Of a DNA stretch of 64,000 nt, positions 7,550-61,577 are shown in pieces (the stretch's first letter is position 1; every line of letters starts with the position of its first letter). Position numbers and translations under genes: made by a program. The stretch spans positions 128,998 through 192,997 of the forward strand of contig JAUYOL010000043.1 of the NCBI GenBank assembly GCA_030695905.1, written 5' to 3'. This stretch comes from Candidatus Omnitrophota bacterium. Its GTDB lineage: Bacteria; Omnitrophota; Gorgyraeia; 2-01-FULL-45-10. Below the pieces are notes generated by a model. The model was not told where the DNA came from. It was given only the letters and a program-made list of their open reading frames with translations, and did not search any database.

Positions 7550-7553
7550 CAGA

Positions 7554-14447: not shown

Positions 14448-14466
14448 GGTGTTTTATCTTTGTGAA

Positions 14467-14583: not shown

Positions 14584-14616
14584 ATCATTCACCTCCTTTA
14601 TATTTTATGGTTCCAT

Positions 14617-14656: not shown

Positions 14657-14757
14657 GTTCCCTGGTTTTACAAAACCCGTATACAGCGGCATTATTCACG
14701 ATGCCTTGATATATAGGTAGGTCTTCTGACTGCCCAGCCCTTTTTAACTGCCTTCCC

Positions 14758-14908: not shown

Positions 14909-14957
14909 AAGCTCTCTCGAGCACCTATACAGTTCAATGTGTCAAAGAATAAATTAG

Positions 14958-41530: not shown

Positions 41531-41940
41531 AAAATTTACCCACCATGCTGGCCGTAAGGCCAGGGGGCCTCGCCTAATTTTGCTATCAAGCTACTTAATG
41601 TTATCTTAATTATATATTTCAAATTGTATCTTATGGCTTAGCCTATAAATACGTTGGGGAATAATAAACCGTTAGCAAAATTTACGGCTCAACCCCCATG
41701 GCCTCACGGCCTACAACATGATATAAATTTTATAGCTCATGTTGCAGGCGGGCCTCGCTGGCCCAGCCTGACGCTGCTGTCAAAAATTATGACACCTTAT
41801 AGCGATTTAGCAAAAAATTTAAATTCCTGAAAGAAGTTAAATTTTTGTCAGAATTTTTCCAGAATAAATTGGTATGCTTAATACCAATTTATGTCAGCGG
41901 AAGGCGGTCAGCGAGGCCCGCCGTCCTCTGAAAAAAAGCT

Positions 41941-42201
41941 TTACTCCCCGAACCTACGATACCATAGCACTACTGCTGTAACCGCTGTGAAGAGGATCAG
42001 ATTGACGATGTTAAACGCGCGCCAGACGATATCGGGAGAGTGTAACGCCTCGGGCGCCATCAAAACAAAGCATGTCCACACTCCGACCGCCCACGGGATA
42101 CTAAGATCTTTTGAAGACCTTCTTTTTATGACTCTCACTATCAGGGGAATATTCCACAGGGGTAATACTATAGCCGCTATCAGCGCGATAGTCTTTGTCA
42201 T
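41941..42201 (-). CDS. SemiSWEET-like PQ-loop small transporter (86 aa, 3 TM)
   Basis: PLIVRVIKRRSSKDLS matches the PQ-loop motif (PQfiKvlKtRSardiS) of bacterial SemiSWEETs, with the same length and TM topology. It abuts the acsE stop. Confidence 0.55.
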   Translation of the reverse strand: MTKTIALIAAIVLPLWNIPLIVRVIKRRSSKDLSIPWAVGVWTCFVLMAPEALHSPDIVWRAFNIVNLILFTAVTAVVLWYRRFGE

Positions 42202-42202
42202 T

Positions 42203-43000
42203 TTATATCAGCCTCCCTTCGCGGAACGCTTTTATGTATTCGGCGCAGTATTCATCCTCACAAAGTAATGCCTTTGAAACAACTATGGAAGACATGATAT
42301 ATTTTTCCGTAGGGTCAAGTATGGCCGCGTCCAATCCCGCCTGCATAGCCATGGATAAAAATACTGAATTGATCAATTTTCTGTTCGGCAGTCCGAACGA
42401 TACGTTCGACAATCCGCATACGGTTTTCGCTCCGAGAGATTTTATCATCGGTATCGACCTCAAGAATTCTTTCACTTGTTCAGGCTCTGTCGATATGGGG
42501 CGGATCAACGGATCGAAATAAATATTTTCCGGCTTAAAACCTTTTGCGCAGACCTTCACCAGCATATCTTTGGCAATATTAAACCTGTCCTCTGCGCTAT
42601 GTGGCATACCCTCTCCGCCCATAGTAAGGGCTATGAGCTTCGTATTATATTTAACCGCCAGCGGAACTATATGCTCCATCCTTGAGTCCTCGCCTGTAAT
42701 TGAATTAATAAATGTTTCGCCGCCTGCTTTATATATTTTGAGAGCGCTTTCAATGGCGATGTGGCTGGGACTATCGATACAGATATTGACATCTTTTATT
42801 TCGCTCTGGATTACGCTTATCATCCAATCGATATCCTGGATCTCGTCTCCGAGGCTCATCGCGCAATTGATATCCAAAAATTTTGCGCCTGCTTCGATCT
42901 GCTTCTTCGCTTCTTTTAATATGAAAGCTGCATCCTTATTCTTCATCGCTTCCTGAATATGCGCTCTCGTAGAATTTATACGCTCACCGATTATCAACAT
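42203..43000 (-). CDS. acsE: Methyltetrahydrofolate:corrinoid/iron-sulfur protein methyltransferase AcsE (pterin-binding)
   Basis: 265-aa pterin-binding barrel (IIGERIN...DINCA...GLSNVSFG), in the acs cluster. Confidence 0.8.
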   Translation of the reverse strand: MLIIGERINSTRAHIQEAMKNKDAAFILKEAKKQIEAGAKFLDINCAMSLGDEIQDIDWMISVIQSEIKDVNICIDSPSHIAIESALKIYKAGGETFINSITGEDSRMEHIVPLAVKYNTKLIALTMGGEGMPHSAEDRFNIAKDMLVKVCAKGFKPENIYFDPLIRPISTEPEQVKEFLRSIPMIKSLGAKTVCGLSNVSFGLPNRKLINSVFLSMAMQAGLDAAILDPTEKYIMSSIVVSKALLCEDEYCAEYIKAFREGRLI

Positions 43001-43014
43001 TCTATTACTACCTC

Positions 43015-43941
43015 CTAAACTATACCGTAAGCCGCTTCTATCGTTTTAATAAGCGCGGTCAACACTTCATTAACAGGCGTCGGTATGCCTAATGCCTTCC
43101 CCTGCCGCATGATCGCGCCATTTATAAAATCTATTTCGGTGCGTTTATTATTAAGGACATCCTGCAGCATGCTTGAGACATTAGCGGCCGTCGCCTTGCA
43201 TACCGATTCGACCTTCTGGATAGGATCGTCGTAGGCCAGCTTTATCCTTTTTCTTTTTACTATCTTCACGGCTTCCTGCACGGCGCTTCTTAGAATTTCC
43301 CTTGTACCGCTGTGCTCTGTAAGCATCCCATTTTTTAGACGTGTTATGCCTGTCAGGGCATTTATTCCCACATTTATAACGAGCTTACTCCACACCACAG
43401 AATCTATGTCCTTAGATACTTTTGTCTCCAGGCCGGCTTTTGACAAGATACCCGCGATCTCTTTAATCGGCCCCAATACCTTACCGTTAGAAATCCCTAT
43501 AATGGTATCGCCCTTACCCGCATGCCGGACATGGCCGGTGCCAAGTAAAGTCACACCGTGATTTGTAATACCGGCAATAACTCTATCCGAACCAAAATAA
43601 TCGTTTAACACCTGGACATTACCAATGCCGTTTTGTAAAGTCAGGACAAATGTTTCTTTCGAGACAAGATCCTTAATGTCTTTGCACGCGTCCTCGGTAG
43701 AATAACTCTTAACGCAGAGTATAACGAGGCCGCACGGTCCGACCTCTTTAGGATCCGCCGAAATATTTACCTGCGCCTGAATGGAACCGCTCAAGCCTTC
43801 TATCTTTATCCCATCGGCTCTTATGCGCTTGGCGCGCTCGGGAGATCTGTCAATAAGCCATATCTCCTCCTTGGTCCTTGCCTTCAATAATACGGCTATA
43901 AGACAGCCGAGGGCTCCGGGGCCTACGACCGCTACCTTCAT
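43015..43941 (-). CDS. panE: 2-dehydropantoate 2-reductase (PanE/ApbA family)
   Basis: N-terminal Rossmann VAVVGPGALG and the ApbA C-terminal domain (EIDFINGAI). Confidence 0.75.
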   Translation of the reverse strand: MKVAVVGPGALGCLIAVLLKARTKEEIWLIDRSPERAKRIRADGIKIEGLSGSIQAQVNISADPKEVGPCGLVILCVKSYSTEDACKDIKDLVSKETFVLTLQNGIGNVQVLNDYFGSDRVIAGITNHGVTLLGTGHVRHAGKGDTIIGISNGKVLGPIKEIAGILSKAGLETKVSKDIDSVVWSKLVINVGINALTGITRLKNGMLTEHSGTREILRSAVQEAVKIVKRKRIKLAYDDPIQKVESVCKATAANVSSMLQDVLNNKRTEIDFINGAIMRQGKALGIPTPVNEVLTALIKTIEAAYGIV

Positions 43942-44813
43942 TATTTCTTCCTCATCTTTCTTATCTCTTCGTCTTTTATCGTAAAACAGTGCGCGGCATC
44001 CGGAAACAGCCCTTTCTCGACCTCGTCTTTATATTTCTTTACGCCGTCCGTTATAAGCGAGGAGAGCTTCACATATTGCTTTACAAATTTTGGGACAAAT
44101 CTGTCGAATAGCCCGACCATATCATAAGTTACAAGCACCTGGCCGTCACAATGCGGGCCGGCACCGCAACTTATCGTCGGTATCGACACTTTGCTTGTAA
44201 TCAATTTAGCTACTTTATCGGGGATGCATTCGAGTACTACGCCGAAGCATCCGGCACGTTCCAATTTTATCGCCTGCTCCAATATTTTATACGCGCCGTC
44301 AGCGTCTTTACCCTGAACTTTAAAACCGCCCAACTTCGACGCGGTCTGAGGGGTAAGCCCAAGATGGCCCAATACGGGAATGCCAGCGCTGACTATCGCC
44401 ATCGTTACATCCAGCGCGTCATTTCCGCCTTCGAGCTTCACGGCGTCGCAACCGGCCTCCTTCATGAAACGGCCCGCGTTGCGCACCGCTTCTTCATTCG
44501 AGATCTGGTACGACATAAACGGCATATCGCCTATTAAAAACGCGTATTTCGTGCCGCGCCTCACCGCTTTCGCGTGATGTATCATCTCATCCATGGTTAC
44601 AGGCACAGTTGATTCGTATCCGAGCACCACCATGCCCAACGAATCGCCGACCAGTATTGAATCTATGCCCGCGTCATCAATTATCCTCGCCATAGGATAG
44701 TCATATGCCGTAAGCATAGTAATCTTTTTCCCTTCGTGCTTCTTATTCTGCAGATCTATTATCGTTACCTTTTTCCTATCCATATTCTCTCCTTTATTTC
44801 TTCCTATACGCAT
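43941..44813 (-). CDS. panB: 3-methyl-2-oxobutanoate hydroxymethyltransferase (ketopantoate hydroxymethyltransferase)
   Basis: ITMLTAYDYP...ILVGDSLGMV canonical PanB motifs. Confidence 0.9.
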   Translation of the reverse strand: MRIGRNKGENMDRKKVTIIDLQNKKHEGKKITMLTAYDYPMARIIDDAGIDSILVGDSLGMVVLGYESTVPVTMDEMIHHAKAVRRGTKYAFLIGDMPFMSYQISNEEAVRNAGRFMKEAGCDAVKLEGGNDALDVTMAIVSAGIPVLGHLGLTPQTASKLGGFKVQGKDADGAYKILEQAIKLERAGCFGVVLECIPDKVAKLITSKVSIPTISCGAGPHCDGQVLVTYDMVGLFDRFVPKFVKQYVKLSSLITDGVKKYKDEVEKGLFPDAAHCFTIKDEEIRKMRKK

Positions 44814-45582
44814 CCAAGAACGAGTCGCAGTAAATATTTTTATTCAATACAAGTTCCGCTGTGATCACGGCGTCCATAAGATCCTTGTCGAGCGGATCCA
44901 ATATCGCCGAAGTCAGGCCATTCGCTATAGCCATCGTGACAAATGTCCGGTTTATCAGGGGCCTGAATTTTGTGCCTTGTGACACGTTAGATAAGCCCAC
45001 TGTCGTCTGCGGCGCGGGATCGCATAGCATCCTGAATTCACGAAGCGACTCGAGAACCTCCCTGCCTTGAGTCTGCGCGACATTTACCGGCAGTACTATG
45101 GGGTCGATATATAGATCCTCGGTATTGATGCCATATTCTATGGCCTTCGCCACTATCGTCGCAGCTAACTCCAGCCTCTTGTCCTTTGAATTCGGCACTC
45201 CGGACTTATCCATGGCAAGCCCTATCACCTGCGCATTATACCTCTTTGCAAGGTCAAAGATCTTCGCCATCTTATCTTCATCCGCGCTTGTAGAATTTAT
45301 AATGGCTCTCTTCTTTACCAGCTTCAAGCCCTCTTCTATAACATCCGCTTTCGTCGAGTCAAGCGCGAGCGACACATCGGTAACAGCCTGGATGGATTCG
45401 ACCAGCCACTTCATATCATCTTTAGGATTTTTTGAATAAGGCCCTGCATTGACATCTAAAACGGACGCGCCCGAATTGACCTGGTCGACAGCCAGATGCT
45501 GTATTATATCCGCCTCCTTATTTACGATAGCCTTGCCGACATCCTTATACATTCCATTTATCAACTCGCCTATTATTATCAC
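44794..45582 (-). CDS. Second methyl-THF:corrinoid methyltransferase paralog (AcsE/MtrH-like pterin-binding protein)
   Basis: 262 aa (IIGELIN...DVNAG...GLSNVSQG); paralogous to the acsE at 42203-43000. Confidence 0.75.
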   Translation of the reverse strand: MIIIGELINGMYKDVGKAIVNKEADIIQHLAVDQVNSGASVLDVNAGPYSKNPKDDMKWLVESIQAVTDVSLALDSTKADVIEEGLKLVKKRAIINSTSADEDKMAKIFDLAKRYNAQVIGLAMDKSGVPNSKDKRLELAATIVAKAIEYGINTEDLYIDPIVLPVNVAQTQGREVLESLREFRMLCDPAPQTTVGLSNVSQGTKFRPLINRTFVTMAIANGLTSAILDPLDKDLMDAVITAELVLNKNIYCDSFLDAYRKK

Positions 45583-45595
45583 TTTTTCTTCCCCC

Positions 45596-46516
45596 TTATC
45601 TCTTCATCATGGTTTCAACATATCCGGTAATTTCTCTGGAGCTATCGGGATGCCTGACTACTAAAATGTCGGCTCCTGCCTGCAGCATCGATATCGACGT
45701 TGCTATCTCCCAATTTACGCCCTGCACCATCGAATCCTTCGCTTCCTTGACCTTCCAAACCTCCTGACCCGCAAATAAGATAAACGGCATCGAGAGCATC
45801 TTGTCGCCTATAAACGCGGCGAGCCGGGCCCGCTCCATTATCGAATAAACGTATTCCATGCCATAACCTAAAGATGTAGTAGTTGGATGCATCACTATCT
45901 TTTTAGGGTCGAAGCCCATATCGCTTACCAGTATATTTACCTGCTTCGCGATATTAATATCTATTGGCGATTCCGCTATAAGAGAGTGTCCGTCGGCAAG
46001 ACAGGTCGCGGTAAGCGTCTTGTAATTTTCCTGGCTGGCGACTCCGAAAAGGCTGTTCGTCCCTTTAAGCGCATTACTCGCTTTAGGCAGAAGGTCATTA
46101 TCTTTATCATCGTCCCCAGACCCCACTACTATTAACGGCACTTTTACCTCTTTGGCGATCTGTTTTAAAATAGAGACCGAATGATCCGAGCTTTTATTGC
46201 CCCAATCAGGGTGAACACTCTGCAGCCTCACACACAATAACTTCGCACCGAACTTTTCCACCGCGGTCTTCGCCCATCTTACAGGGTCTTTTATATCCGC
46301 GCCGAAAGCGTCTTTAAGAGGCTGCGGCCATTCCACCGGTTCGCAATCCATCACTTCGATAGCCGTTATGGGCGCGTTGGGCATCTGGCCTTCTTCAAAT
46401 AAGAAAGGAAGCATCGTCTCACCGCCGATTTTTACCGTCGAACCGGATTGCGGGCCACCTATCTCAACAATATTTATCGCGTTATTATACTTTTCTTTTA
46501 CTAATTCCACGGCCAT
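45596..46516 (-). CDS. acsD: Corrinoid iron-sulfur protein small subunit AcsD (CdhD homolog)
   Basis: 306-aa TIM barrel of the CFeSP delta subunit, adjacent to acsC and acsE. Confidence 0.8.
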   Translation of the reverse strand: MAVELVKEKYNNAINIVEIGGPQSGSTVKIGGETMLPFLFEEGQMPNAPITAIEVMDCEPVEWPQPLKDAFGADIKDPVRWAKTAVEKFGAKLLCVRLQSVHPDWGNKSSDHSVSILKQIAKEVKVPLIVVGSGDDDKDNDLLPKASNALKGTNSLFGVASQENYKTLTATCLADGHSLIAESPIDINIAKQVNILVSDMGFDPKKIVMHPTTTSLGYGMEYVYSIMERARLAAFIGDKMLSMPFILFAGQEVWKVKEAKDSMVQGVNWEIATSISMLQAGADILVVRHPDSSREITGYVETMMKR

Positions 46517-46517
46517 C

Positions 46518-47268
46518 TTATTTCTCCATTAATTTTGTGAATATCTCTTTTATCCTGTCCTTAATATCGGCATCTTCAAATTCAAATATCGGCTTATTCG
46601 ATATGCTCCACTTGTCGACATTCTCGTCAAAAGGTATCGTTCCGATAAAATTCGCGCCGACAGCGCGTATTTCGGCCTGAAGCGGCTCCAAAAATCCGGT
46701 TACCTTATTTATTATAAACGCGCTCGACCCCATCCTTATGCCAAGGTCTTTTGCAAGTTCGAATATCCTTTTTGCCGAGCGTATCCCTACTATGGAATAG
46801 TCGCTGACGAGCAAAAGCCTGTCGATAACTCGCATGGTGCGGCGCGATATATGCTCCATGCCGGCCGCATTATCGATAACTACAAAATCATAATTTTTTA
46901 TCACACGCGCCATCATGTCGCGCAAAAGGTTATTAACATAGCAGTAACATCCCGGGCCTTCAGGCCTACCCATGACCAATAGGTCAAACCCCTCTTCTTC
47001 GACTAAAGCTTCCTGCACTCTCATTTCTATAAAACGCTCTTTCGTCATACCGCCGGGAATGTTGCCCATCTGCTTAGAAACTTCATCACAAATTCCGGCT
47101 ATAGTCTGGTGGCCCGCGATACCTAAAGCTTCCGGTAAAGTTGAATTAGGATCGGCGTCGATAGCCAGTATCAAGCCTTTTTTATTGGATACGAGAAAAT
47201 CCACCAAGAGCGCCGCTACGGTGGTCTTACCAGTGCCGCCTTTTCCATTAACAGCTATAACTGTACCG
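46518..47268 (-). CDS. cooC: CODH/ACS nickel-insertion accessory ATPase CooC/AcsF. The P-loop is encoded upstream of the first ATG, so the start is non-canonical or unresolved
   Basis: The track ORF starts at MVDFLV, but the in-frame upstream sequence encodes IGTVIAVNGKGGTGKTTVAALL (Walker A). It is preceded by AGGGAGG, and the only candidate start is ATC/ATA. Confidence 0.7.
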
Positions 47269-49069
47269 ATGGGAACCTCCCTAAATCAGTGTGCGGAAAA
47301 AATAATGACGCCACATATTCATCCATATAGTTATTCTCCGCGCTCAAATCTATATATGTGATGTTCTTATATATATCGTCCGTCTTCTTAAAAGCGTCCG
47401 CAGACAATAGCGACATTCTCGCGCCGGCAAGCGATGAATTCCCTATAAATTCATACCTCGACCTCTGGGCGTCGGGCAGAAGACCTATAAAGATAGAGTT
47501 TTCTATATTCAGATAATTACCGAAGCCGCCGGCAATATATATCTTTTTTATGTCCTCTAATTTTTTATCGACCTTATTAAGCAGCGATATTATAGCGCTG
47601 TATATCGCGCCTTTCGAGCGCTTAAGATTTTCTATGTCATCGTCGCTAATGATAACTTTATCCGCGACGATAAATTCATAACCTGTATCTGTCTTCCTGA
47701 TCCTTTTGGATTTCAACTCACGGTTTATTTTTCCATTTTTTCCAATAACACCTCTTTTTAACATCTGGCACAATAGGTCTATATAGCCGGAGCCGCATAT
47801 CCCCTTCGGCTTTTCATCCGCTATTGTTAAAACTTTTACATTAAGGTCTTTATCTATCTCTACTTTCTGAATCGCGCCTTTTACCGCCTTCATGCCGCTC
47901 GTCAGCCCGCTTCCTTCAAAAGCAGGACCAGCGCTCGCCGCGGCACTTATCATCCATTCGGAATTACCAAGTACAATTTCGCCGTTAGTGCCTATATCTA
48001 CGAGCAATGATATCTCGCCGCTTTCCGACAGCCCGCATGCCAGCACACCCGAGACGATATCGCCTCCCACATATGTGGTTACGCCTGGTATAAAAGATAC
48101 TATGCCTTTAGGATTTGCATCTATCCCCACTTCGGGAGAGTGTACCGTCTCAAACACAGTTGTCGTAGGTATATAAGGCGCCTTCCTTATATTTGTCGGG
48201 TCAACTTTTAGCAAAAGATGCATCATCGTCATGTTGCCCGCGCATACTATAGCGTATATATCAGCCATGTTGACATTGTGCGCCTTCGTAAGGTCTTCTA
48301 TTATTTCATTGACATTATCAAGCACCGCCTCATTAAGCACCTTTAGGCCTTCCGGATTTGAGGCGTAAATTATCCTCGTAATAATATCGGCTCCGTAGCT
48401 CGCTTGCTTATTAAACGCTATTCTTGTGCCTAAAATATTTCCTGTATTAAGGTCTATCAGCTGGCCGACAACGGTAGTCGTTCCTATGTCAAACGCAAAC
48501 CCGAAATTTACCTTCTTCGTATCGCCGGGCTCTATCGAGATTATGTCTATAGCATCGTCTTTATGTCCGATACAGGCGGTAACCTTAAAATCGCTGTCCC
48601 GCAGGACTTCGCTCAAATGTTTTAGATTTGCGAGGTTCGTCGATATGTGGACATTGTGAAACTTGTGCTCTATGTCCCTACATACTCTGTCAAGATCGCT
48701 TAAATTGTCGTCCTGTGTAGGCGCGGAAAGTTCCAGATACTCTTTTTTGACAAGCGGTGAAAAGGCAAACGCCTTTTCTCTTTCAAGCACTACGCCTTTC
48801 GTGAATTCTTCCGATTCGTGCTTGAACTTAGCGTGGACTTCGAGCGACTCTTTAGGTATCTTTACTTCGAGGTCGCTTTCCACTATAGTCTGGCAGGCAA
48901 GGACCTCTTTTTTGCCTGTTACAACCTTACACTTGCCGCAGAGGCCTTCTCCGCCGCAGGATGCATGCATCGCTATGCCGGCTTTTATGGCGGCGGTAAG
49001 CAGATCCGTACCTTGCGGAACTTTTATCGTTTTCTTCAGCGATGTAAAATTTACTGTGAACTCTTTCAT
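47255..49069 (-). CDS. Reductive activator of corrinoid Fe-S protein (RACo; 2Fe-2S ferredoxin plus ASKHA ATPase)
   Basis: N-terminal 2Fe-2S ferredoxin (CGGEGLCGKC...C) followed by an ASKHA/acetate-kinase-like ATPase domain (DIGTTT, DIGTNGE). 604 aa, in the acs cluster. Confidence 0.8.
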   Translation of the reverse strand: MKEFTVNFTSLKKTIKVPQGTDLLTAAIKAGIAMHASCGGEGLCGKCKVVTGKKEVLACQTIVESDLEVKIPKESLEVHAKFKHESEEFTKGVVLEREKAFAFSPLVKKEYLELSAPTQDDNLSDLDRVCRDIEHKFHNVHISTNLANLKHLSEVLRDSDFKVTACIGHKDDAIDIISIEPGDTKKVNFGFAFDIGTTTVVGQLIDLNTGNILGTRIAFNKQASYGADIITRIIYASNPEGLKVLNEAVLDNVNEIIEDLTKAHNVNMADIYAIVCAGNMTMMHLLLKVDPTNIRKAPYIPTTTVFETVHSPEVGIDANPKGIVSFIPGVTTYVGGDIVSGVLACGLSESGEISLLVDIGTNGEIVLGNSEWMISAAASAGPAFEGSGLTSGMKAVKGAIQKVEIDKDLNVKVLTIADEKPKGICGSGYIDLLCQMLKRGVIGKNGKINRELKSKRIRKTDTGYEFIVADKVIISDDDIENLKRSKGAIYSAIISLLNKVDKKLEDIKKIYIAGGFGNYLNIENSIFIGLLPDAQRSRYEFIGNSSLAGARMSLLSADAFKKTDDIYKNITYIDLSAENNYMDEYVASLFFPHTDLGRFPSVQL

Positions 49070-50404: not shown

Positions 50405-50417
50405 TTTAATCCCTTTC

Positions 50418-51614: not shown

Positions 51615-51627
51615 GAGCCTTGTCCTT

Positions 51628-53805: not shown

Positions 53806-55066
53806 ACATATTCTCCTTATCTTTACCTTTAATATGTTCTATAATATCAGGATAGCCGAAGCTCTCCTCTGTCAGTCTATCCCTGAACGGTACAATGTCT
53901 ATCCCGTCTTTTATTAATCTTAAAAATATACCGCCATTAGCCACCTTTCCAGCCAGTACTACCCCAACCAGGCGGTTATTTTTAATAACAAATTTTTTAT
54001 ACGTCCCGGCTTTTGCATTCTTTAATTTTATCTCTTCGAACCCCTGTCCATCCTTTACCTTAAATATTCCAAAAGACATCGTCGGCAACCCGAAAAACTC
54101 CAGAGAATTCATCCCAAGCGAACCTTCATATTTAACCTTTTCTCCCGCCATATTCGCGCCTGCAACTCTTCCCTGCCATACGGCAATAGGCCAGAGCGCG
54201 TTCACACACCCCGCCTTCAGAGTAATATCATAAGCCTCGCATACATCTCCAGCCGCATAGATATTGGGAACTGCTGTGCGCAACGTGTTATCTGCTATTA
54301 TACCTTCGTTCACTTTAATGTCTGTTCCGCTTACCATATCAATATTAGGCGCAACTCCTTTACTGACTATCAGTATTGAAGCCTCTATTGTCTTGCCGGA
54401 ATCTAACTTTAACGCCTTAATATTGTCTTCACCAACTACCTCAGCCACATCGTGGCCGAAGATAAGTTCGACACCGTTTGATTCCAGCTTATTCTGGACA
54501 AGCTGGGCAGCCTCCCGGTCGAGCACCTGCGATAAAACCTGCCCGGATTTGACTATGACCTTTACTTTGAGGCCTCTCTTCTTCAAGGCATAAGCAGCCT
54601 TCAGCCCGACCAGGCCCCCGCCGGAAATACAGGCTGGCTTGCTCGCCGCGACAAGCGTATTAAGTTCTTTAGCATCCCGGATCGTCCTGAATCCATAAAC
54701 GCCTTTTTTGTCTATGCCTTTTATCTCCGGCATCTTGGGCGAAGAGCCTGTAGCAATAAGGAGGCTGTCGAATTCATGTTTCGTCTTGTCCTCAAAGTAG
54801 ACCGCGTTCTTCTTCGGTTCAACGCGCGTGATCTTTTTATTCAGGATTAGTTCAATATTATTCTCTTTATAAAAACTGTCTGCCCTGTATAATATTTCTT
54901 TCTCCTTAATGTCCCCGGCGAGATAGTACGAAATGAGACAGCGACAATAAGACGGGTAATCTTCATCCGAAATCATAGCTATCCGTGACTCTTTATCTTT
55001 CTTACGGATAGCTTCCGCCGCCGATATGCCCGCTGCTGAATTCCCTATAATAATATAGCGCTTCAT
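53798..55066 (-). CDS. FAD/NAD(P)-dependent pyridine nucleotide-disulfide oxidoreductase (CooS/CooF-associated)
   Basis: GxGxxG Rossmann folds (IIGNSAAG, GGGLVG) in the cooS-cooF-oxidoreductase arrangement common in acetogens. Confidence 0.7.
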   Translation of the reverse strand: MKRYIIIGNSAAGISAAEAIRKKDKESRIAMISDEDYPSYCRCLISYYLAGDIKEKEILYRADSFYKENNIELILNKKITRVEPKKNAVYFEDKTKHEFDSLLIATGSSPKMPEIKGIDKKGVYGFRTIRDAKELNTLVAASKPACISGGGLVGLKAAYALKKRGLKVKVIVKSGQVLSQVLDREAAQLVQNKLESNGVELIFGHDVAEVVGEDNIKALKLDSGKTIEASILIVSKGVAPNIDMVSGTDIKVNEGIIADNTLRTAVPNIYAAGDVCEAYDITLKAGCVNALWPIAVWQGRVAGANMAGEKVKYEGSLGMNSLEFFGLPTMSFGIFKVKDGQGFEEIKLKNAKAGTYKKFVIKNNRLVGVVLAGKVANGGIFLRLIKDGIDIVPFRDRLTEESFGYPDIIEHIKGKDKENMYV

Positions 55067-55506
55067 TTAAACACCTCTTCCTGCCATATAACTGCGCCTG
55101 TAGGGCATGCTTTTACACAAGCCGGTTCGTCTTTATCGGCACATTTATCGCAGCGCACCGGCATCTTCTTTTTTAAATTGGGGCGGACAGCGCCGTATGG
55201 GCATACCATGACGCACATCCAGCAGCCGACACAGCGCTTCTCATCGTGCAGGACCATCCCCTTCGTCTTATCAAAGATAAGCGCTGAGGCCATGCAGGCG
55301 TCAACACATTTTGCGTCCTTGCAATGCCTGCATGAAACAGGATAATTTTTCCCGCGCGAACATAGCACTTTTTTTCGCGGCAGAGAGGGCATCTCTTCTT
55401 TTATTGCCTTAAAGAGATCCCCGCTCGCTGAATGAGCCACCGCGCAGGCAATCTCGCAGGACTTGCACCCTAAACATTTTTTTACTCCATAATATAACGT
55501 CTTCAC
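55063..55506 (-). CDS. cooF: 4Fe-4S ferredoxin-type electron transfer protein CooF
   Basis: Multiple CxxCxxCxxxCP clusters (CLGCKSCEIAC..., CVGCWMCVMVCP). Confidence 0.85.
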   Translation of the reverse strand: MKTLYYGVKKCLGCKSCEIACAVAHSASGDLFKAIKEEMPSLPRKKVLCSRGKNYPVSCRHCKDAKCVDACMASALIFDKTKGMVLHDEKRCVGCWMCVMVCPYGAVRPNLKKKMPVRCDKCADKDEPACVKACPTGAVIWQEEVFK

Positions 55507-57446
55507 TTTTGGTACATCCAGGGTTTAAGATTAAGCGCTTTACGCTTCTTGTCTATGTGAGCTATCATCAGGTCGGCCATCTTTATTGGGTCATCGCAGA
55601 ACTCAAACCTTCCTCCGACGGCACTCTCAATACCCTTCGTCAGATACTCCGTCAGATTAGCGCTTCCCAGAGTGGCAAAAGGAAGTGAGCCAAATACGGT
55701 GTATACTCCCGAGGCGACAAAATAAAAACCGATCGTTATCGCTTTCTCTGACATCCATTCGGGCGCGCAGCCTGCGGCCGGTATATCCGACAAATCCTGG
55801 CCCAGTCCGCCTTCCTCTATAATATGAGACGCGGCTGTCAGTATACGTGAATTATCGACACATGCGCCCATGTGCAGTACCGGCGGTATGCCGACCGCCT
55901 CGCATATCTCCTGCAATCCCTTGCCGGCATAAGTCTTGGCCGCTTCCGGCACCAGCAACCCCTGTTTCGCGCAGGCTATCGCGGCGCATCCGGTCTGAAG
56001 TACCAGCACATCGTTCTTTATTAATTCCTTCACAAGCGTCGTATGATAATAATCGTGAGTCTGCTTCGGGTTGTTGCATCCTACCACGCCGGCCAATCCC
56101 CTAAGGCGTCCGGATATGATAGCCTCATTCAAAGGCTTATATGTTGAACGATATTTGCCTCCCAATATCTGGAAAACTATCTCTTTCGTAAAACCTGCCA
56201 CCAGATCCATCTCGTGTTTTGGGATGTTGACCCTTCCCTTATTTCTATTGGAAAAATTTTCCACGCCTATCCTTACTATCTGCTTGGCCACATCATAAGC
56301 ATTGTCAGGGGTAAATTCTATATGTTGTACGCCGGGGAAACGGGCCTTCGTGCTTGTCGTAATGAGTTTCGTATGAAAACAACTCGCTACCTCATGGAGG
56401 GCCGGCATTATACATTGGACATCTACCATCATAACTTCCACCGCGCCGGTTATTATGGCCAACTCCTGCTGAAGAAAATTACCCGCGACCGGAATACCGT
56501 TACGCATCAGGACTTCGTTAGCGCTGCAGCAGATACCGGCAAGATTGATACCTTCGGCGCCTTTTACCTTAGCAAGCTTTACCAATTCAGGATCTTTGCA
56601 GGCCTTGACCGCCATATCCGACAGGACTGGTTCATGGCCATGCACTACGATGTTGACAAAACCTTCCCTCAGAACTCCGAGATTCACTTTTCCCCTTACA
56701 GGCATCGGACTGCCAAGAATGGCATCCTGAACTTCGGTCGCGATCATCGATCCGCCCCAACCGTCCGAAAGCGCACATCGCATACCGTTTTTTATCATAT
56801 TCTTATAATCGTTGTCCACGCCCATAGTTGTGGTATGTAAAAGCTCTACGACTTCCCTGTCTATACCGCGCGGTGTAATGCCAAGATCCTTCCATATCTT
56901 CTGCCGTTTTTTAGGGGCCCTTTTGCAAAATACCAGTTCGCCATCCTGTTTCCCGAACTCTTCGAGGAGTTTTTTGGAAAGTTCTCTGGTAATATCGGAT
57001 ATCGGCTTTGAGCTGTCGATGCCAAATTCTTCCGCAAGCTTCTTAAATTTATCGACGTCGAGTATTTCGTAATTGTGTGTATGAGAATCCTTGCCATGCC
57101 CATGCTCATGCATGCGAACGTCCGAGATAAGCGATAACATATGCGCGACATCCCTGCCGTGATCGGAATGAGCGGACGCGCCAACCGCTATTTTCCTGAC
57201 AAGGTTTCTCGCCGCTATGGTATCGGCGTTTGCGCCGCACACACCGGTGTTAGCGCCCTCTCCAAACGGATCTATGCGGCACGGTCCCATGTTACAGACT
57301 GTGCAGCATGCTCCGAGTTGACCAAAACCGCATTGAGGTTGCTGTTCTCCAAGCCTATCCCAAACAGTCTCGATGCTCTCACATCTTGCCTTTTCAAGCA
57401 TCTCCTGCGTAGCTAAATCTATGGATTTTTTCTTCACATCTGACAT
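55503..57446 (-). CDS. cooS: Anaerobic carbon-monoxide dehydrogenase catalytic subunit CooS/AcsA
   Basis: 647 aa with N-terminal B/D-cluster cysteines (CGFGQLGACCTVCNMGPCRI) and C-cluster ligand regions. Confidence 0.9.
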   Translation of the reverse strand: MSDVKKKSIDLATQEMLEKARCESIETVWDRLGEQQPQCGFGQLGACCTVCNMGPCRIDPFGEGANTGVCGANADTIAARNLVRKIAVGASAHSDHGRDVAHMLSLISDVRMHEHGHGKDSHTHNYEILDVDKFKKLAEEFGIDSSKPISDITRELSKKLLEEFGKQDGELVFCKRAPKKRQKIWKDLGITPRGIDREVVELLHTTTMGVDNDYKNMIKNGMRCALSDGWGGSMIATEVQDAILGSPMPVRGKVNLGVLREGFVNIVVHGHEPVLSDMAVKACKDPELVKLAKVKGAEGINLAGICCSANEVLMRNGIPVAGNFLQQELAIITGAVEVMMVDVQCIMPALHEVASCFHTKLITTSTKARFPGVQHIEFTPDNAYDVAKQIVRIGVENFSNRNKGRVNIPKHEMDLVAGFTKEIVFQILGGKYRSTYKPLNEAIISGRLRGLAGVVGCNNPKQTHDYYHTTLVKELIKNDVLVLQTGCAAIACAKQGLLVPEAAKTYAGKGLQEICEAVGIPPVLHMGACVDNSRILTAASHIIEEGGLGQDLSDIPAAGCAPEWMSEKAITIGFYFVASGVYTVFGSLPFATLGSANLTEYLTKGIESAVGGRFEFCDDPIKMADLMIAHIDKKRKALNLKPWMYQK

Positions 57447-57460
57447 TTATTTTCTCTCCT

Positions 57461-58327
57461 TTACAATCCCGCTGTCTCTAAAACAAGCGGGACCTTCTTA
57501 TCCCAGCCTATCGGCATGATATGTATGCCCTGACACAACGGCTTAAGCTCTCTAATAAGCCGCGCAGCTATCTCTATCGATTTTGCACTCTTATCTTTCG
57601 TCTCTTCCATCTCTTTAATAAGATTGTCGGGCACGAAGACTCCCGCGACATTCTTATTCATATATCTTGCCATTCCCGCGGATTTCAGCAATACTATGCC
57701 GCCCAATATCTTTGTCTTTAAATGCCGCGTGGCGTCCAAGAATCTTTTGAATAACTCCATATCGTAGATAGCCTGCGTCTGGAAAAATAGCGCGCCGGAT
57801 TCTATCTTTTTCTCCATCTTTATGATTTCCGGCTCGAGCGGATCCGCGCCCGGGTTTACTACCGCGCCTACACAGAATTTTGGCGCCCCCTTTAACGCGT
57901 TGCCTTTCATGTCCTTGCCTTCCTGCAAAAGTTTTATCGCGTCCAGAAGCTCAATAGAGCCTAAATCAAATACAGGCTTAGCCTCGGGATGATCGCCGAG
58001 CGTCGGATAATCCCCCGTAAGGGCAAGCACATTTTCTATGCCGAGTATGGCGGCGGATAATAGATCGGACTGTAACGCAAGCCTGTTCCTGTCACGGCAT
58101 GTCATCTGCAATATAGGCTCGATGCCCCTATCCTTTAAAAGATGGCACACCGCAAGCGAACCGACCCTTAATACGGAACTTTGCAGGTCCGTAACATTTA
58201 TTGCGTCGACCTTGCCCTTTATAAGATCCGCATCTTCGAGCATCTCTTTGATATCGGTCCCTTTTGGGGGACCTATCTCGCTTGTAACTAAAAATTTGCC
58301 GGCTTTAATCTTATCGCAGAATGTCAT
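57461..58327 (-). CDS. metF: Methylenetetrahydrofolate reductase MetF (acetogen-type)
   Basis: 288-aa TIM barrel of the MTHFR family. Confidence 0.8.
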   Translation of the reverse strand: MTFCDKIKAGKFLVTSEIGPPKGTDIKEMLEDADLIKGKVDAINVTDLQSSVLRVGSLAVCHLLKDRGIEPILQMTCRDRNRLALQSDLLSAAILGIENVLALTGDYPTLGDHPEAKPVFDLGSIELLDAIKLLQEGKDMKGNALKGAPKFCVGAVVNPGADPLEPEIIKMEKKIESGALFFQTQAIYDMELFKRFLDATRHLKTKILGGIVLLKSAGMARYMNKNVAGVFVPDNLIKEMEETKDKSAKSIEIAARLIRELKPLCQGIHIMPIGWDKKVPLVLETAGL

Positions 58328-58401
58328 CCCGTATTCCTATCCCACCGCCGCGGTGGGAATGTAGCTAACTACACGACACCGCGGCGGTGCAATTCATGAG
58401 T

Positions 58402-59283
58402 TTAAAACATAAAACTATTCTTAAACAATTCAACAGTATTACGCATAAGTATAGTAGTTGTGATCGGCCCTACACCGCCGGGAACAGGCGTGATGAAAGA
58501 CGCTTTTGCTGAAGCGGCCTCAAACTCCACATCGCCGACTATCTTGTCCGCTACTCTATTTATCCCTACGTCTACAACAATAGCGCCTTCTTTTATCCAA
58601 TCACCTTTTATTATACCTGCCCTGCCTACCGCAACGACCAGCACCTCGGCTCTTTTTACATGATCGGCAAGCACGCCTCTTTCGCCGGTGGCTATGTGAC
58701 AAACTGTCGTCGTCGCGAATTTATTTAGTAGCATCATGGCAAGCGGTTTGCCCACAATCTCTGAGTGGCCGACTATAACCGCCTCTTTCCCGTATAGATT
58801 TACTTTTGATGATTCCAATAATTCCATTACAGCCATGGCCGTACACGGGCCTATCCTGTACTGGCCCAGCAATATTTTCCCGAGGTTTTCCGGATGCATG
58901 CCCTCGGCATCTTTTGCGGGCGATATAAGATTAACTATCCTTTTTGCGTCTATACCCTTTGGCACCGGAAGCTGTAATATTATCGCCGATACGGCCGAAT
59001 TACTATTTAACTCTTTAACAATATCTTCCGCTTCGGCCTGTGTAATCGTCGCTGGTAAGACTTTAAGTTCATACTCTATTCCAAGATTTTCCGCCGCCTT
59101 CTTCTGCGCTTTGACATACACGGCGCTCGACGCGTTATCTCCCATCTGCAAAGCAACCAGCTTAGGCGTCTTGCCGCTTTTAGCTTTAAGCGCTTCGACA
59201 TCTGATTTTATCGACGTTCTAAGTCCTTCCGCTATTACTTTACCCTCTAAAAGTGCCGCACTCACCTGATTACCTCCTCGCAT
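58402..59283 (-). CDS. folD: Bifunctional methylene-THF dehydrogenase / methenyl-THF cyclohydrolase
   Basis: 293 aa with FolD motifs (YxxK, PGGVGPIT). Confidence 0.9.
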   Translation of the reverse strand: MRGGNQVSAALLEGKVIAEGLRTSIKSDVEALKAKSGKTPKLVALQMGDNASSAVYVKAQKKAAENLGIEYELKVLPATITQAEAEDIVKELNSNSAVSAIILQLPVPKGIDAKRIVNLISPAKDAEGMHPENLGKILLGQYRIGPCTAMAVMELLESSKVNLYGKEAVIVGHSEIVGKPLAMMLLNKFATTTVCHIATGERGVLADHVKRAEVLVVAVGRAGIIKGDWIKEGAIVVDVGINRVADKIVGDVEFEAASAKASFITPVPGGVGPITTTILMRNTVELFKNSFMF

Positions 59284-59864
59284 TTTTCCAAGAACTCTTC
59301 TTTTAACTTCGGCAGCTGCTCCTCCATCGGCTGCAGGATATTGTGGATACTGCCGATAAAATCCATATCCTTTATATATCTCATATTTATGTAGACGTTG
59401 TACTTCGCGGCAAAGAACGCGCCCTCCAGAAATATAACCGCTATCGCCGTATCCGTTATTAAATTTTTATTGCCGCATTCGATCAATCCATCGCATAATT
59501 TTAAACATTCCGCGGATATTCTGCATATATCGCAGGGAGGTTTTATGGCTTCTTTGTAGGCCATCTCCAGTTTCGAAGCGTCCTTAGTCTCCTTCATGAT
59601 CTTCGACAATTTACTATAAGCTTCTACATCCATATCGATAAGGGCTTCGAGTTCTTTGCGCGCTTCAAGCGTCCTATTTAATATTTTCTTCGCATTCTCT
59701 TCGCCGGATTTATATTTCGGATTGCCTATAGTGTAATTTGCGACCATAGACATCAGCGCTACCCCTGCAGCCGCAGTAAGCGCGGCCGCGCTTCCGCCGC
59801 CAGGTGCCGGTTTTCGGGCAGCAAGATCACTTAAATAGGCTTCTACAGATCCTTTAATGTACAT
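59262..59864 (-). CDS. fchA: Methenyl-THF cyclohydrolase / formiminotransferase-cyclodeaminase-like protein (FchA family). Likely start at the internal Met (MYIKGS)
   Basis: PAPGGGSAAALTAA motif of the FTCD_C cyclodeaminase/cyclohydrolase domain. Confidence 0.7.
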   Translation of the reverse strand: MYIKGSVEAYLSDLAARKPAPGGGSAAALTAAAGVALMSMVANYTIGNPKYKSGEENAKKILNRTLEARKELEALIDMDVEAYSKLSKIMKETKDASKLEMAYKEAIKPPCDICRISAECLKLCDGLIECGNKNLITDTAIAVIFLEGAFFAAKYNVYINMRYIKDMDFIGSIHNILQPMEEQLPKLKEEFLEKCEEVIR

Positions 59865-61522
59865 ATCTTCGACCTCCCTTTGGCGTCGACATCCATGCAC
59901 TCGCCCACCGGATGAGACGGCAGGCTCGGCATGGTAAGAATATTACCGCACAGCGCATATAAAAATCCCGCCCCGGCTGATGGGCGCACCTCGCGTATAG
60001 GCAATACAAAATCTTTCGGAGCGCCTTTAAGTTCCGGGTCATGCGACAAGGATAATGGCGTCTTTGCCATGCATATGGGCAATTTTGCCAAACCCAGTTT
60101 TTCAAAAATCTCTATATTTGCCTGGGCATGCGGCTCGAAATTCACATCTTTTGCGCCGTAAATTTTAGTGGCAATAATACGCATCTTCTCTTTTATGGAT
60201 ACACCGGACGGATACAGGCGCCTGAAATTACTCTTTACGGAAGCGGCCTTTACCACCGCCCTCGCGAGATCCTTACCGCCTGCCGAGCCTTTTTTATAAA
60301 CTTCGCTTGCCACGCAGTCAAACGCGCCGGAGCTTAAAGCTATCTTTTTAACCAAATCTATCTCTTTGTCGGTGTCTGTGGCAAATCTGTTGACGGCGAC
60401 AACGCAAGGCACGCCGTAAATGAGCACATTCTCTATCTGTTTTTTTAGGTTCTCGCAACCTGATTCAACTGCCTTTAAATCTTCTTTTTCGATCTCTTTG
60501 CCCAGCGCCTTACCCACGGTCATTTTGAACATTCCGGAATGTACTTTAAGCGCTCTTATCGAACATACCAGGACTGCGGCATCGGGCTTGAGTCCACTCT
60601 GGGCGCACTTTATATTAACAAATTTCTCCATCCCGCAGTCCGCTCCGAATCCGGATTCCGTAACCACAAAATCCGCCAATTTCAGCCCGACACGGTCGGC
60701 CAGAATGGAGCTGCTCCCATGCGTTATATTCGCGAATGGCCCTGTATGTATAATGCACGGCGTATTCTCGCCTGTCTGCACAAGGTTTGGCTTTATAGCG
60801 TCCTTTAATAACAGCGCCATGGCTCCCGCGACATGGATATCTTCGCACGTAACGGCCTTGCCTTCTTTGGTAAGGGCAAGGACTATCCTTGAAAGACGCC
60901 TCCTTAAATCCGGTATAGACTCGCATAATGCAAGGATAGCCATTATTTCGCTTGCCGCTGTTATGCAAAATCCGGTCTTCCTTTCGACGCCATGCTCACC
61001 GCCGCCTAAGGCTATCATGACGTTACGCAGCGCCCTGTCATTTACATCGACTACCCTGCGCCAGTATATCCTATCCGTATCTATGCCTAATCCATTGCCT
61101 CTATATAGATGATTGTCTATAAATGACGCACAAAGGTTATGAGCCTGGCTTACCGCGTGTATATCGCCTGTTAAGTGCAGATTGATATCGTCTTCCGGCA
61201 GTACCATAGCCTTACCACCGCCAACTCCTCCGCCTTTAACACCGAAGAACGGCCCGATAGAGGGCTGTCTTATGCAGGCAACCGTTTTCTTGCCGAGCTT
61301 ATTCAGGGCCATCGATAGGCCTATCGTAGTAACGGTCTTTCCCTCACCCAAATGCGTCGGGGTGATGCCCGTTACAACGATATATTTGCCCTTTGACCGT
61401 AAATTCTTTTTAGACTTGAGGATGTCCAGGGATATCTTGGCCTTATGGTAACCATATGGCTCCAGATATCTGTTTGATATACCGAGCTTTGTGGCAATTG
61501 AATTGATTGGCTTTAGCGTCAT
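59843..61522 (-). CDS. fhs: Formate--tetrahydrofolate ligase
   Basis: 559 aa with the canonical FTHFS sequence (TPTHLGEGKTVTTIGL). Confidence 0.95.
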   Translation of the reverse strand: MTLKPINSIATKLGISNRYLEPYGYHKAKISLDILKSKKNLRSKGKYIVVTGITPTHLGEGKTVTTIGLSMALNKLGKKTVACIRQPSIGPFFGVKGGGVGGGKAMVLPEDDINLHLTGDIHAVSQAHNLCASFIDNHLYRGNGLGIDTDRIYWRRVVDVNDRALRNVMIALGGGEHGVERKTGFCITAASEIMAILALCESIPDLRRRLSRIVLALTKEGKAVTCEDIHVAGAMALLLKDAIKPNLVQTGENTPCIIHTGPFANITHGSSSILADRVGLKLADFVVTESGFGADCGMEKFVNIKCAQSGLKPDAAVLVCSIRALKVHSGMFKMTVGKALGKEIEKEDLKAVESGCENLKKQIENVLIYGVPCVVAVNRFATDTDKEIDLVKKIALSSGAFDCVASEVYKKGSAGGKDLARAVVKAASVKSNFRRLYPSGVSIKEKMRIIATKIYGAKDVNFEPHAQANIEIFEKLGLAKLPICMAKTPLSLSHDPELKGAPKDFVLPIREVRPSAGAGFLYALCGNILTMPSLPSHPVGECMDVDAKGRSKICTLKDL

Positions 61523-61548
61523 TATATTAAAATAATTATGAGATAATC

Positions 61549-61577
61549 ATTCTAATATAAGTGGGCGGGCAGGTCAA
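61549..61577 (-). promoter_or_regulatory. Sigma70 promoter of the Wood-Ljungdahl operon (upstream of fhs)
   Basis: Minus strand has TTGACC, a 17-nt spacer, then TAGAAT, about 25 nt 5' of the fhs ATG. Confidence 0.55.

Follow-up and report, generated by a model that had tools for sequence, protein, structure and literature searches.

A candidate one-carbon and acetyl-CoA super-operon in an uncultured Omnitrophota bacterium, with pantoate genes beside its folate genes and a modular carbonyl block

The Wood-Ljungdahl pathway has previously been reconstructed in the Omnitrophota, in the classes Gorgyraia and Velamenicoccia (Seymour et al. 2023, PMC10066038). The passages of that study drawn on here describe a version without AcsA and CooS/F (the Velamenicoccus archaeovorus type) and a 'plus CooS/F' version (the Fontincolimonas calida type), and report that formate dehydrogenase is frequently absent from the phylum. 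Here we analyse a gene string of this pathway on a 64,000-nucleotide stretch of DNA from Candidatus Omnitrophota bacterium (assembly GCA_030695905.1, contig JAUYOL010000043.1, forward-strand positions 128,998 to 192,997). The whole stretch is referred to as the window, and positions are counted from its first letter. Open reading frame (ORF) calls combined with Pfam and NCBIfam searches reveal a co-directional string on the minus strand at 41941-61522, running from fhs to acsE2 plus an ORF of 86 amino acids (orf86). Its order, 5' to 3', is fhs-fchA-folD-metF-cooS-cooF-FNOR-acsB-PMT_2-acsC-RACo-cooC-acsD-acsE1-panB-panE-acsE2-orf86, where FNOR is an FAD-dependent NAD(P) oxidoreductase and RACo the reductive activase of corrinoid protein. 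The string shares phylum and gene inventory with the published reconstruction and represents its 'plus CooS/F' version, with both versions occurring among its nearest relatives. Seymour et al. work at the level of gene and module presence and our analysis at the level of gene order, and the passages of PMC10066038 in question contain no gene order, no panB-panE-acsE2 linkage, no MetV-less MetF and no covariation between the AcsB N-terminal domain and carbon monoxide dehydrogenase (CODH). Literature searches that paired Wood-Ljungdahl gene clusters with panB or its enzyme, ketopantoate hydroxymethyltransferase, returned nothing relevant. As the pathway and its presence in Omnitrophota were already known, the locus is no discovery in itself; its gene order, its panB/panE linkage and its MetV-less MetF are organisational variants of known systems.

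The acs clusters of Moorella thermoacetica, Clostridium ljungdahlii/autoethanogenum and Acetobacterium woodii (see also PMC8760232) share AcsB, AcsC, AcsD, AcsE, CooC (a CooC-like ATPase in the window) and a corrinoid activase with the window, and the Clostridium-type clusters also carry fhs-fchA-folD-metF on one strand. In the model acetogens, however, AcsA is directly paired with AcsB, whereas the CODH of the window consists of CooS followed by CooF and FNOR. Unlike those clusters, the string is without metV, hdr/mvhD, rnfC2, lpdA and gcvH, and it contains a second AcsE paralog, embedded panB and panE genes, and an unrelated gene for a membrane glycosyltransferase-like protein. A first-pass annotation of this DNA had described the layout as unlike the canonical Moorella/Clostridium acs cluster, and on this comparison we agree.

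To place the string among its relatives we used 80 genome loci anchored on PanB, 80 metagenome loci anchored on MetF and six loci found by exact-protein match, all annotated with the window's proteins and numbered with the prefix L. The nearest PanB loci among species-representative genomes come from Omnitrophota metagenome-assembled genomes (MAGs), including JABMQH01, which gives its name to a Gorgyraia family in Seymour et al. (2023, PMC10066038). The full layout of the window, with inserts between acsB and acsC and between acsE1 and panB, is found in L166 (JGI, 573 kb) and in L168 (NCBI GCA_041643015.1, read through panB). In L084, L086, L088, L142 and L164 the triad cooS-cooF-FNOR is missing and acsB directly follows metF; the downstream part of this arrangement is also seen in L162 and L002-L004. 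Other loci are without the carbonyl block, and read metF-panB-panE-acsE2-ptaN-apbE-mnmA after fhs-fchA-folD (L152, L153) or metF-panB-ptaN (L023, L027), with ptaN denoting a gene that resembles the N-terminal part of Pta. L063 resembles these last loci, with a shorter ORF like methylenetetrahydrofolate reductase (MTHFR) replacing metF. A methionine-synthase layout, metV-metF-(MetH activation-domain-like)-metH-panB-panE, occurs in L008-L010, where MetV and the activation domain were identified by Pfam. The segment acsE1-panB-panE-acsE2 recurs in L002-L004, L084, L088, L162, L164 and L166, and through panB in L168; these are separate NCBI, JGI, ENA and GTDB records whose PanB proteins are 73-84% identical.

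The constant element is therefore panB(-panE) directly downstream of methyl-branch/folate genes, and the carbonyl block is a variable insert. Because these varied Omnitrophota layouts all keep panB near folate genes, the stable link is the one between panB and folate one-carbon genes. The pantoate genes had been described as inserted between the two acsE paralogs; L152 and L153 indicate that this is better inverted, with panB-panE-acsE2 belonging to the backbone and cooS to acsE1 forming the insert. Overall, 15 of the 24 Omnitrophota species loci have a one-carbon or acsE gene on the same strand as panB and within 6 kb of it. Beyond this phylum, 5 of the 48 loci from Desulfobacterota carry folD-panB-panE, and a single Bacillota MAG carries fhs-folD-panB-panE.

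PanB consumes 5,10-methylenetetrahydrofolate (methylene-THF), which is the product of FolD and the substrate of MetF. We propose that the locus is a one-carbon/acetyl-CoA 'super-operon' made up of a folate backbone and a modular carbonyl block, and put the probability of this reading at roughly two in three. The backbone would comprise fhs-fchA-folD-metF, then panB-panE-acsE2, the ptaN-like gene and mnmA, and would turn formate into methylene- and methyl-THF while co-expressing enzymes that use those pools. PanB would take methylene-THF to make ketopantoate and PanE would reduce this to pantoate, with the methyl-THF methyltransferases drawing on methyl-THF. The carbonyl block acsB-acsC-RACo-cooC-acsD-acsE1 would sit as a module between metF and panB, carrying in this genome CooS-CooF-FNOR as well, together with a matching AcsB N-terminal domain predicted to dock CODH. 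No formate dehydrogenase or molybdopterin oxidoreductase was detected among the ORFs of at least 500 amino acids in the 64-kb window, so the pathway as encoded here begins at formate. The recurrent linkage of panB/panE to fhs-folD-metF provides a clean comparative-genomics argument, and suggests that in these ultra-small anaerobes the synthesis of pantoate, a CoA precursor, may be fed from, and co-expressed with, a formate-derived methylene-THF pool. A coupling of pantoate supply to the shared methylene-THF pool had been suggested at first pass; the conserved adjacency of panB/panE to one-carbon genes fits this proposal, in which both the co-expression and the metabolic rationale of a shared pool are inferred.

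Several points weigh against this reading. The view is of 64 kb of genome, and a second panB/panE pair, MetV, a formate dehydrogenase or GlyA may lie elsewhere. Nine of the 24 Omnitrophota panB loci have no one-carbon neighbour, and co-transcription is read from spacing only. Furthermore, unrelated genes are interspersed within the string in relatives: greA between acsC and RACo (L088, 14507-14977), a cation-diffusion-facilitator transporter between acsD and acsE1 (L006, 2570-3433), a TPR protein or small membrane proteins at the acsB-acsC junction, and, between acsE1 and panB, a conserved secreted protein of ~195 amino acids with a signal peptide and a SYEQLSPNGKY motif (L004 2886-3473, L166 18670-19272, L168 20972-21559) that is missing from the window. 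The block does lie on a single strand, as the first-pass annotation stated, but the annotated ORFs of the entire 64 kb are all on the minus strand, which makes 'single strand' a property of the region and not of the operon. With such a co-directional region and such interspersed genes, adjacency is a weaker functional signal than it would be in most bacteria.

These observations bear directly on a neutral account, in which the place of panB-panE in the cluster is an accident of history, in a genome that is streamlined and strand-biased, and the order was kept by vertical inheritance with no functional coupling. The uniform strand of the window's ORFs, the many unrelated inserts in relatives (one of them exactly between acsE1 and panB), the PMT_2 gene inserted in the window itself and the demonstrably accidental adjacency of birA and coaX discussed below are all what such an account would lead us to expect. 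However, panB stays with one-carbon genes through at least four rearrangements, in which it accompanies acsE1, follows metF directly, or comes after metH or folD, and the linkage holds down to a PanB identity of ~58-65%. Its recurrence in Desulfobacterota and in a Bacillota MAG, and the match between the FolD product and the PanB substrate, also speak for more than inheritance of an accidental order. We therefore consider neutral synteny unlikely and retain the super-operon as the preferred reading.

The PMT_2 gene between acsB and acsC, bordered by 13-nt spacers, was found in none of the compared relatives. As this junction is occupied by different, unrelated ORFs in relatives, it looks like an insertion hot spot. 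A repeat search of the window found no direct or inverted repeats flanking cooS-cooF-FNOR or PMT_2 and hence no sign of a mobile element, and no gene deviates by more than 2 sd in GC content or GC at third codon positions (GC3), so that composition gives no hint of a recent arrival from elsewhere of panB/panE, the CODH module or PMT_2.

A further question raised by the first-pass annotation was whether PanB and PanE are true pantothenate enzymes or repurposed paralogs, and we see no sign of repurposing in their profile scores or catalytic motifs. PanB aligns end to end with the E. coli and M. tuberculosis enzymes (1m3u, 1oy0) with metal-binding and catalytic motifs intact (VGDSLGM, GDMPF, VKLEGG, GHLGLTPQ and VLECIP); we take these to hold the catalytic residues D45/S46, D84, K112/E114, H136 and E181 in E. 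coli numbering. The alignment of PanE with solved ketopantoate reductases (3hwr, 5hws) likewise spans its whole length, and its Asn, Lys, Ser and Glu motifs are retained (LQNG, WSKLVINVGIN, SSMLQD and TEIDFING). Both genes have GC and GC3 values typical of the window and are thus compositionally native. In the PanB-anchored set this is the only panB detected in 79 of 80 loci (L039 has two), and it is usually paired with panE. As in the canonical pantothenate genes of E. coli (panB, panE) and the ketopantoate reductase of T. kodakarensis (PDB 5hws), the alignment is full-length and the catalytic residues are present, whereas the genomic setting is a folate/Wood-Ljungdahl operon and not the company of panC and panD.

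If the pair had been repurposed, for example for hydroxymethylation and reduction of another 2-oxoacid from methylene-THF, one could point to the PanE/ApbA family, which includes paralogs of uncertain specificity, to PanE scoring below the cutoff of every equivalog model and passing only the subfamily-level TIGR00745, and to panC and panD lying outside the window. Nonetheless, PanB scores 345 bits on the equivalog model TIGR00222, whose cutoff is 208, with its Mg-binding and catalytic motifs kept, PanE retains its N/K/S/E motifs and aligns along its whole length with characterised reductases, and no other panB was detected in all but one of the PanB-anchored loci. Repurposing thus seems highly improbable to us. 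From profile scores and catalytic residues, PanB and PanE are most probably bona fide pantoate enzymes, with the ketopantoate specificity of PanE a prediction.

Tight spacing throughout the block favours a single transcript. Spacers range from small overlaps up to 74 nt, Shine-Dalgarno motifs precede most starts, and in fchA and folD the starts supported by such motifs reduce the apparent overlaps. The pantoate genes are closely coupled to their neighbours: panB most likely starts at ATG 44783, 10 nt past the acsE1 stop and behind AGGAGA, panB and panE overlap by a single nucleotide, and acsE2 follows panE after 14 nt that contain GGAGG. No terminator-like site was found in the spacers around panB-panE. 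The stem-loop directly after orf86 is likely to mark the operon end as a terminator-like structure. A pattern scan of 41500-61499 counted 38 internal promoter-like sites against 33.9 +/- 6.1 in shuffled sequence and 14 terminator-like sites against 18.9 +/- 4.1, with none of either kind within the intergenic spacers; as these counts are at shuffle level, the scan does not settle the operon structure. The proposal of one promoter and minimal gaps thus stands as far as the gaps are concerned, and a promoter candidate is present between coaX and fhs (Table 1), which may or may not be the only one.

Two spacers hold further structure. The 74-nt spacer between folD and metF (58330-58400, minus strand) contains a perfect GC palindrome, CCCACCGCGGCGGTGGG, without a U-tract, which could be an mRNA processing or stability element. 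The 410-nt non-coding spacer between orf86 and ptaN (41531-41940, minus strand) contains the stem-loop plus further GC-rich palindromes and could not be aligned with relatives. Rfam models returned nothing in either spacer when the window was scanned.

Every gene named in the first-pass annotation is present on the minus strand where it had been placed, as confirmed by Pfam and NCBIfam (Table 1); that list was accurate and not complete, having overlooked PMT_2 and orf86. Within the methyl branch, FolD, FchA and MetF pass the Pfam gathering scores and fall below the NCBIfam equivalog cutoffs, and Fhs scores above its cutoff. The AcsB translation contains the cysteine motifs CALCQSF...C...C and SCGCFE, the presumed A-cluster ligands. 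The cooC gene begins with a non-canonical ATC (47268-47270) located 5 nt after GGGAGG and overlapping the end of RACo. A mechanically chosen TTG start strips the protein of its P-loop, and the extended start raises the CbiA score from 28 to 57 bits. Automatic gene callers, including a 228-residue call in Logan, cut off this P-loop. The cooC slot between RACo and acsD is kept in relatives. By eye, orf86 reminded us of PQ-loop/SemiSWEET-type proteins, a likeness that is an impression only.

Table 1. Genes and signals of the string and its immediate surroundings, in window positions and in transcriptional order.
Feature	Position	Strand	Basis
birA, biotin protein ligase with helix-turn-helix domain; neighbour, outside the conserved unit	62355..63332	-	Pfam BPL_LplA_LipB, HTH_11, BPL_C
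coaX, type III pantothenate kinase; neighbour only	61588..62358	-	PF03309 191 bits; TIGR00671 195 bits
sigma-70-like promoter candidate TTGACC-17 nt-TAGAAT, in 65-nt coaX-fhs spacer	61549..61577	-	consensus match only
fhs, formate-tetrahydrofolate ligase	59843..61522	-	PF01268 790 bits; NF010030 747 bits (cutoff 652)
fchA, methenyl-THF cyclohydrolase, 200 aa from ATG behind GGGAGG	59262..59864	-	PF04961 (FTCD_C) 164 bits
folD, bifunctional methylene-THF dehydrogenase/cyclohydrolase, GTG start behind GAGGAGG	58402..59265	-	PF02882 207 bits, PF00763 113 bits
metF, methylene-THF reductase, MetVF-type lineage	57461..58327	-	PF02219 131 bits; MTHFR domain of PRK08645 262 bits (best NCBIfam)
cooS, Ni-CODH catalytic subunit	55503..57446	-	TIGR01702 650 bits (cutoff 478)
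cooF, poly-ferredoxin electron-transfer subunit	55063..55506	-	Fer4_11, Fer4_7; PadI-like 76 bits; 4-nt overlap with each neighbour
FNOR, FAD-dependent NAD(P) oxidoreductase	53798..55066	-	Pyr_redox_2 193 bits and Rubredoxin_C; PadH-like 311 bits; 8-nt overlap with acsB
acsB, acetyl-CoA synthase, mosaic	51628..53805	-	NF040764 1041 bits (cutoff 800)
PMT_2 (GT-C-like, ArnT/PMT family) membrane protein, 398 aa	50418..51614	-	PF13231 40 bits
acsC, corrinoid iron-sulfur protein large subunit	49070..50404	-	NF003195 555 bits (cutoff 306)
RACo/AcsV, reductive activase of corrinoid protein	47255..49069	-	RACo_C_ter 315 bits, Raco_middle, RACo_linker, Fer2
cooC-like Ni-insertion ATPase, 250 aa, ATC start, P-loop GKGGTGKT	46518..47270	-	CbiA 57 bits, AAA_31 (generic P-loop families)
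acsD, corrinoid iron-sulfur protein small subunit	45596..46516	-	NF003376 367 bits (cutoff 280)
acsE1, methyl-THF:corrinoid/Fe-S protein methyltransferase	44794..45582	-	NF005719 318 bits (cutoff 259)
panB, ketopantoate hydroxymethyltransferase	43941..44783	-	TIGR00222 345 bits (cutoff 208)
panE, ketopantoate reductase	43015..43941	-	TIGR00745 293 bits (cutoff 141)
acsE2, divergent pterin-binding methyltransferase paralog	42203..43000	-	NF005719 306 bits
orf86, 86-aa three-helix membrane ORF	41941..42201	-	no Pfam match; ortholog at the corresponding place in L162, 11237-11494
strong stem-loop directly 3' of the last ORF, terminator-like	41850..41940	-	minimum free energy -33 kcal/mol, z = -4.6, 0/200 shuffles as stable

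The Ni-CODH of the window, CooS, is set apart from acsB by cooF and FNOR. Its PDB matches include 6t7j (705 bits) and 6ytt_B, the CODH of the C. autoethanogenum CODH/acetyl-CoA synthase (628 bits). The triad cooS-cooF-FNOR also occurs in L094, L097-L099, L106, L108, L117, L119, L128, L136, L166 and L168. Clusters of this kind have been described elsewhere, with a proposed link between CO/CO2 conversion and pyridine nucleotides (Geelhoed et al. 2016, PMC4703632; Inoue et al. 2019, PMC6344411), and the same three gene types are adjacent in the window. The published cluster is usually a stand-alone CO-oxidation unit, whereas this one shares 8 nt with acsB, to which it is thereby translationally coupled, and covaries with the AcsB N-terminal domain; for these two reasons the module appears to serve as the CODH of the acetyl-CoA synthase.

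The covariation emerged when the window's AcsB was compared with that of relatives in 100-residue bins, with column-bootstrapping of the identity differences. Over residues 1-305 (window ~52890-53805) identity is 85-91% to the full-layout loci, 70-85% to a second CODH-bearing group and 55-60% to CODH-less loci. Over residues 306-700 the corresponding values are 77-84%, 64-67% and 81-85%, the top of this last range being the CODH-less L084 at 85%, with P0122 at 84%. Bootstrap confidence intervals of the identity difference exclude 0 in both halves, and the switch near residue 305 coincides with the border between the N-terminal domain and the Pfam CdhC domain that follows it. Compared with one another, the N-domains of CODH-less loci form a coherent set (76-84%). 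For the C-terminal part of AcsB, as for acsC, RACo and cooC, the CODH-less L084/L162 resemble the window more closely than do the full-layout L166/L168.

This switch in identity implies that the two halves of acsB have different histories. Residues 1 to ~305 track the CODH module and residues 306-725 track the backbone, a pattern that suggests cassette exchange. CooS-CooF-FNOR with its matching N-domain, and the absence of CODH with a divergent N-domain, appear to be alleles exchanged by homologous recombination within acsB. Counting against such exchange, part of the pattern could stem from faster evolution of the N-domain after loss of CODH. The signal for a left crossover in metF, which we also tested, was ambiguous. 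A 'metF-cooS-cooF-FNOR-acsB-polA' group was considered as donor and dropped after closer full-layout relatives, with N-domain identities of 85-91%, had been found. An assembly chimera was likewise rejected as the source of the mosaic: independent assemblies (L166 from JGI and L168, GCA_041643015.1) share the layout and the AcsB type, which makes an artefact unlikely. In the Moorella enzyme, the N-terminal domain of AcsB contacts CODH. If it does so here, the covariation would point, indirectly, to this CooS as the functional partner of the acetyl-CoA synthase. The covariation of CODH module and N-domain among very close relatives serves as a natural experiment in the docking of acetyl-CoA synthase to its CO source, and shows how CODH-less acetyl-CoA synthases arise or are rescued.

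A separate observation concerns one group of contigs (L097, L106, L115, L118, L121, L129 and others) that have an ORF of ~845 amino acids downstream of acsB. In L106 this ORF reads as DNA polymerase I and is preceded by a TPR-like ORF. Neither acsC nor acsD was found within the fetched stretch of these contigs.

The MetF of the window is remote from the type I enzymes of E. coli and Thermus (best PDB match 1v93 at 41 bits; TIGR00676 74 bits against a cutoff of 294; NF006950 31 bits). Orthologs that are 60-69% identical are immediately preceded by MetV, which adjoins metF in L008-L010, L146, L147, L149 and L154-L157 and lies two genes upstream in L160. A tblastn search together with a profile built from 8 relatives found no MetV (PF12225) in the six-frame translation of the window, and no relative whose MetF is at least 71% identical has MetV within 10 kb. 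The statement that MetF has no metV or hdr partner in the window is therefore borne out. In the scheme of Oppinger et al. (2021, PMC8760232), type I is MetF-only and type II is MetVF; the window's MetF (PF02219, ~288 amino acids) is type I by gene content and of the MetVF lineage by sequence, and, judged on these two features, fits neither type cleanly. It adds a further case to the open question of the physiological electron donor of acetogen-type MTHFR.

FNOR had been put forward as a candidate donor for MetF. Across relatives, the full-length FNOR comes and goes with cooS-cooF, and in the closest relatives (MetF 81-88% identical) acsB follows metF directly, without FNOR. Because these relatives keep MetF without FNOR, the comparison gives no sign that MetF depends on it, and the proposal is not supported. 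In a sister group, a conserved, truncated FNOR-like gene of 289-321 amino acids, without the C-terminal domain, lies directly between metF and acsB with no cooS/cooF (L129 and L139, both 10867-11736; L120, L125, L133, L134, L137, L138, L140, L141, L144 and L151). Its product could be either what has been kept of the CODH module or a flavoprotein that has its own function beside MetF, and given this gene a flavoprotein partner for MetF is conceivable.

The donor proposal formed part of a wider interpretation in which coaX and birA, at the head of the operon, physically tie acetyl-CoA synthesis to the supply of CoA and biotin, with FNOR as the missing donor. Both genes do lie immediately upstream of fhs in the window, neither MetV nor Hdr is encoded there, and the truncated FNOR-like gene of 289 amino acids shows that such an ORF can sit between metF and acsB in another group. 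Coverage of the region upstream of fhs in more than 35 related loci nevertheless revealed no case of coaX or birA in that position; relatives have rpsP, trmD, rplS, rnhB and yraN, or queA and tgt, instead, and in L023 birA-coaX lies ~7 kb downstream. A promoter-like site separates coaX from fhs, FNOR tracks cooS-cooF, and FNOR and CooF are PadH/PadI-like and correspond to the CODH-CooF-FNOR unit of the literature. The head is thus best seen as a coincidence of position, and we judge the interpretation as a whole very unlikely.

A bolder possibility, which we hold as tentative and rather doubtful, is that CooS-CooF-FNOR and the AcsB N-domain form a transferable cassette that would pass carbonyl-branch electrons via CooF and FNOR to NAD(P)(H) and not to free ferredoxin. 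Combined with a MetV-less MetF, this would make the pathway pyridine-nucleotide-linked, possibly oxidative or anabolic from formate, with pantoate hard-wired to the same methylene-THF pool. If true, the cassette and the MetV-less MetF would represent an energetically different wiring of the Wood-Ljungdahl pathway.

The two AcsE paralogs are 34% identical to each other. AcsE1 matches the methyl-THF:corrinoid/iron-sulfur protein methyltransferases (MeTr) of C. hydrogenoformans (2yci, 269 bits) and M. thermoacetica (1f6y, 265 bits), and by these scores is the canonical AcsE ortholog. AcsE2 is more distant from MeTr (182 bits) and matches the D. hafniense methyltransferase 4o0q about equally well (160 bits). 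Both paralogs keep the equivalents of Asp75, Asn96, Asp160, Asn199 and Arg207, residues with pterin-binding and catalytic roles in MeTr. AcsE2 belongs to an Omnitrophota-wide orthologous group that NCBI names 'dihydropteroate synthase', and an identical AcsE2 is deposited under that name. The true folP is a separate gene of the window (31994-32818, minus strand; Pterin_bind 307 bits), and the database name of AcsE2 can now be corrected. AcsE2 accompanies panB-panE-ptaN also in loci that have no carbonyl block close by (L021, L152 and L153). In L008-L010, MetH occupies a comparable slot, lying between metF and panB where AcsE2 follows panE in the window, and from this comparable position we hypothesise that AcsE2 may act in methionine synthesis.

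Downstream of the block, the ptaN-like gene (40436-41530, minus strand) encodes a stand-alone protein with AAA_26 and DRTGG domains and no PTA_PTB catalytic domain. It is conserved downstream of panB-panE-acsE2 across Omnitrophota. An ApbE gene lies between it and mnmA in most relatives and is missing from the window and from L073. A Logan contig from SRR13727529 matches the locus without difference, and identical AcsE2 and AcsB proteins stand at NCBI under 'Candidatus Omnitrophota' names. A search outward with BirA returned only the 27.8-kb Logan contig, whose last gene is uvrB.

The remainder of the window is coded on the minus strand, the sole plus-strand feature seen being one tRNA. Its other genes include recO, ybeY, aspS, hisS, dnaE, groEL, acpS, pdxJ, dacA, folP, ftsH, tilS, eda, an HMGL-like gene, an arfB-like gene, mnmA and the Pta-N-terminal-like gene. 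An Rfam scan of the window recovered four tRNAs and one cobalamin riboswitch, far from the block. Behind this riboswitch (14699-14943) lies a cobalamin biosynthesis and cobalt-transport operon (248-14943, minus strand) comprising cbiD, cbiO/Q/M, cbiC, cbiX, cobB, cbiB, cobQ, cobD, cobS, cobT, cobU, cobC and a radical SAM gene, so that corrinoid supply is encoded ~27 kb from the corrinoid-dependent acs genes.

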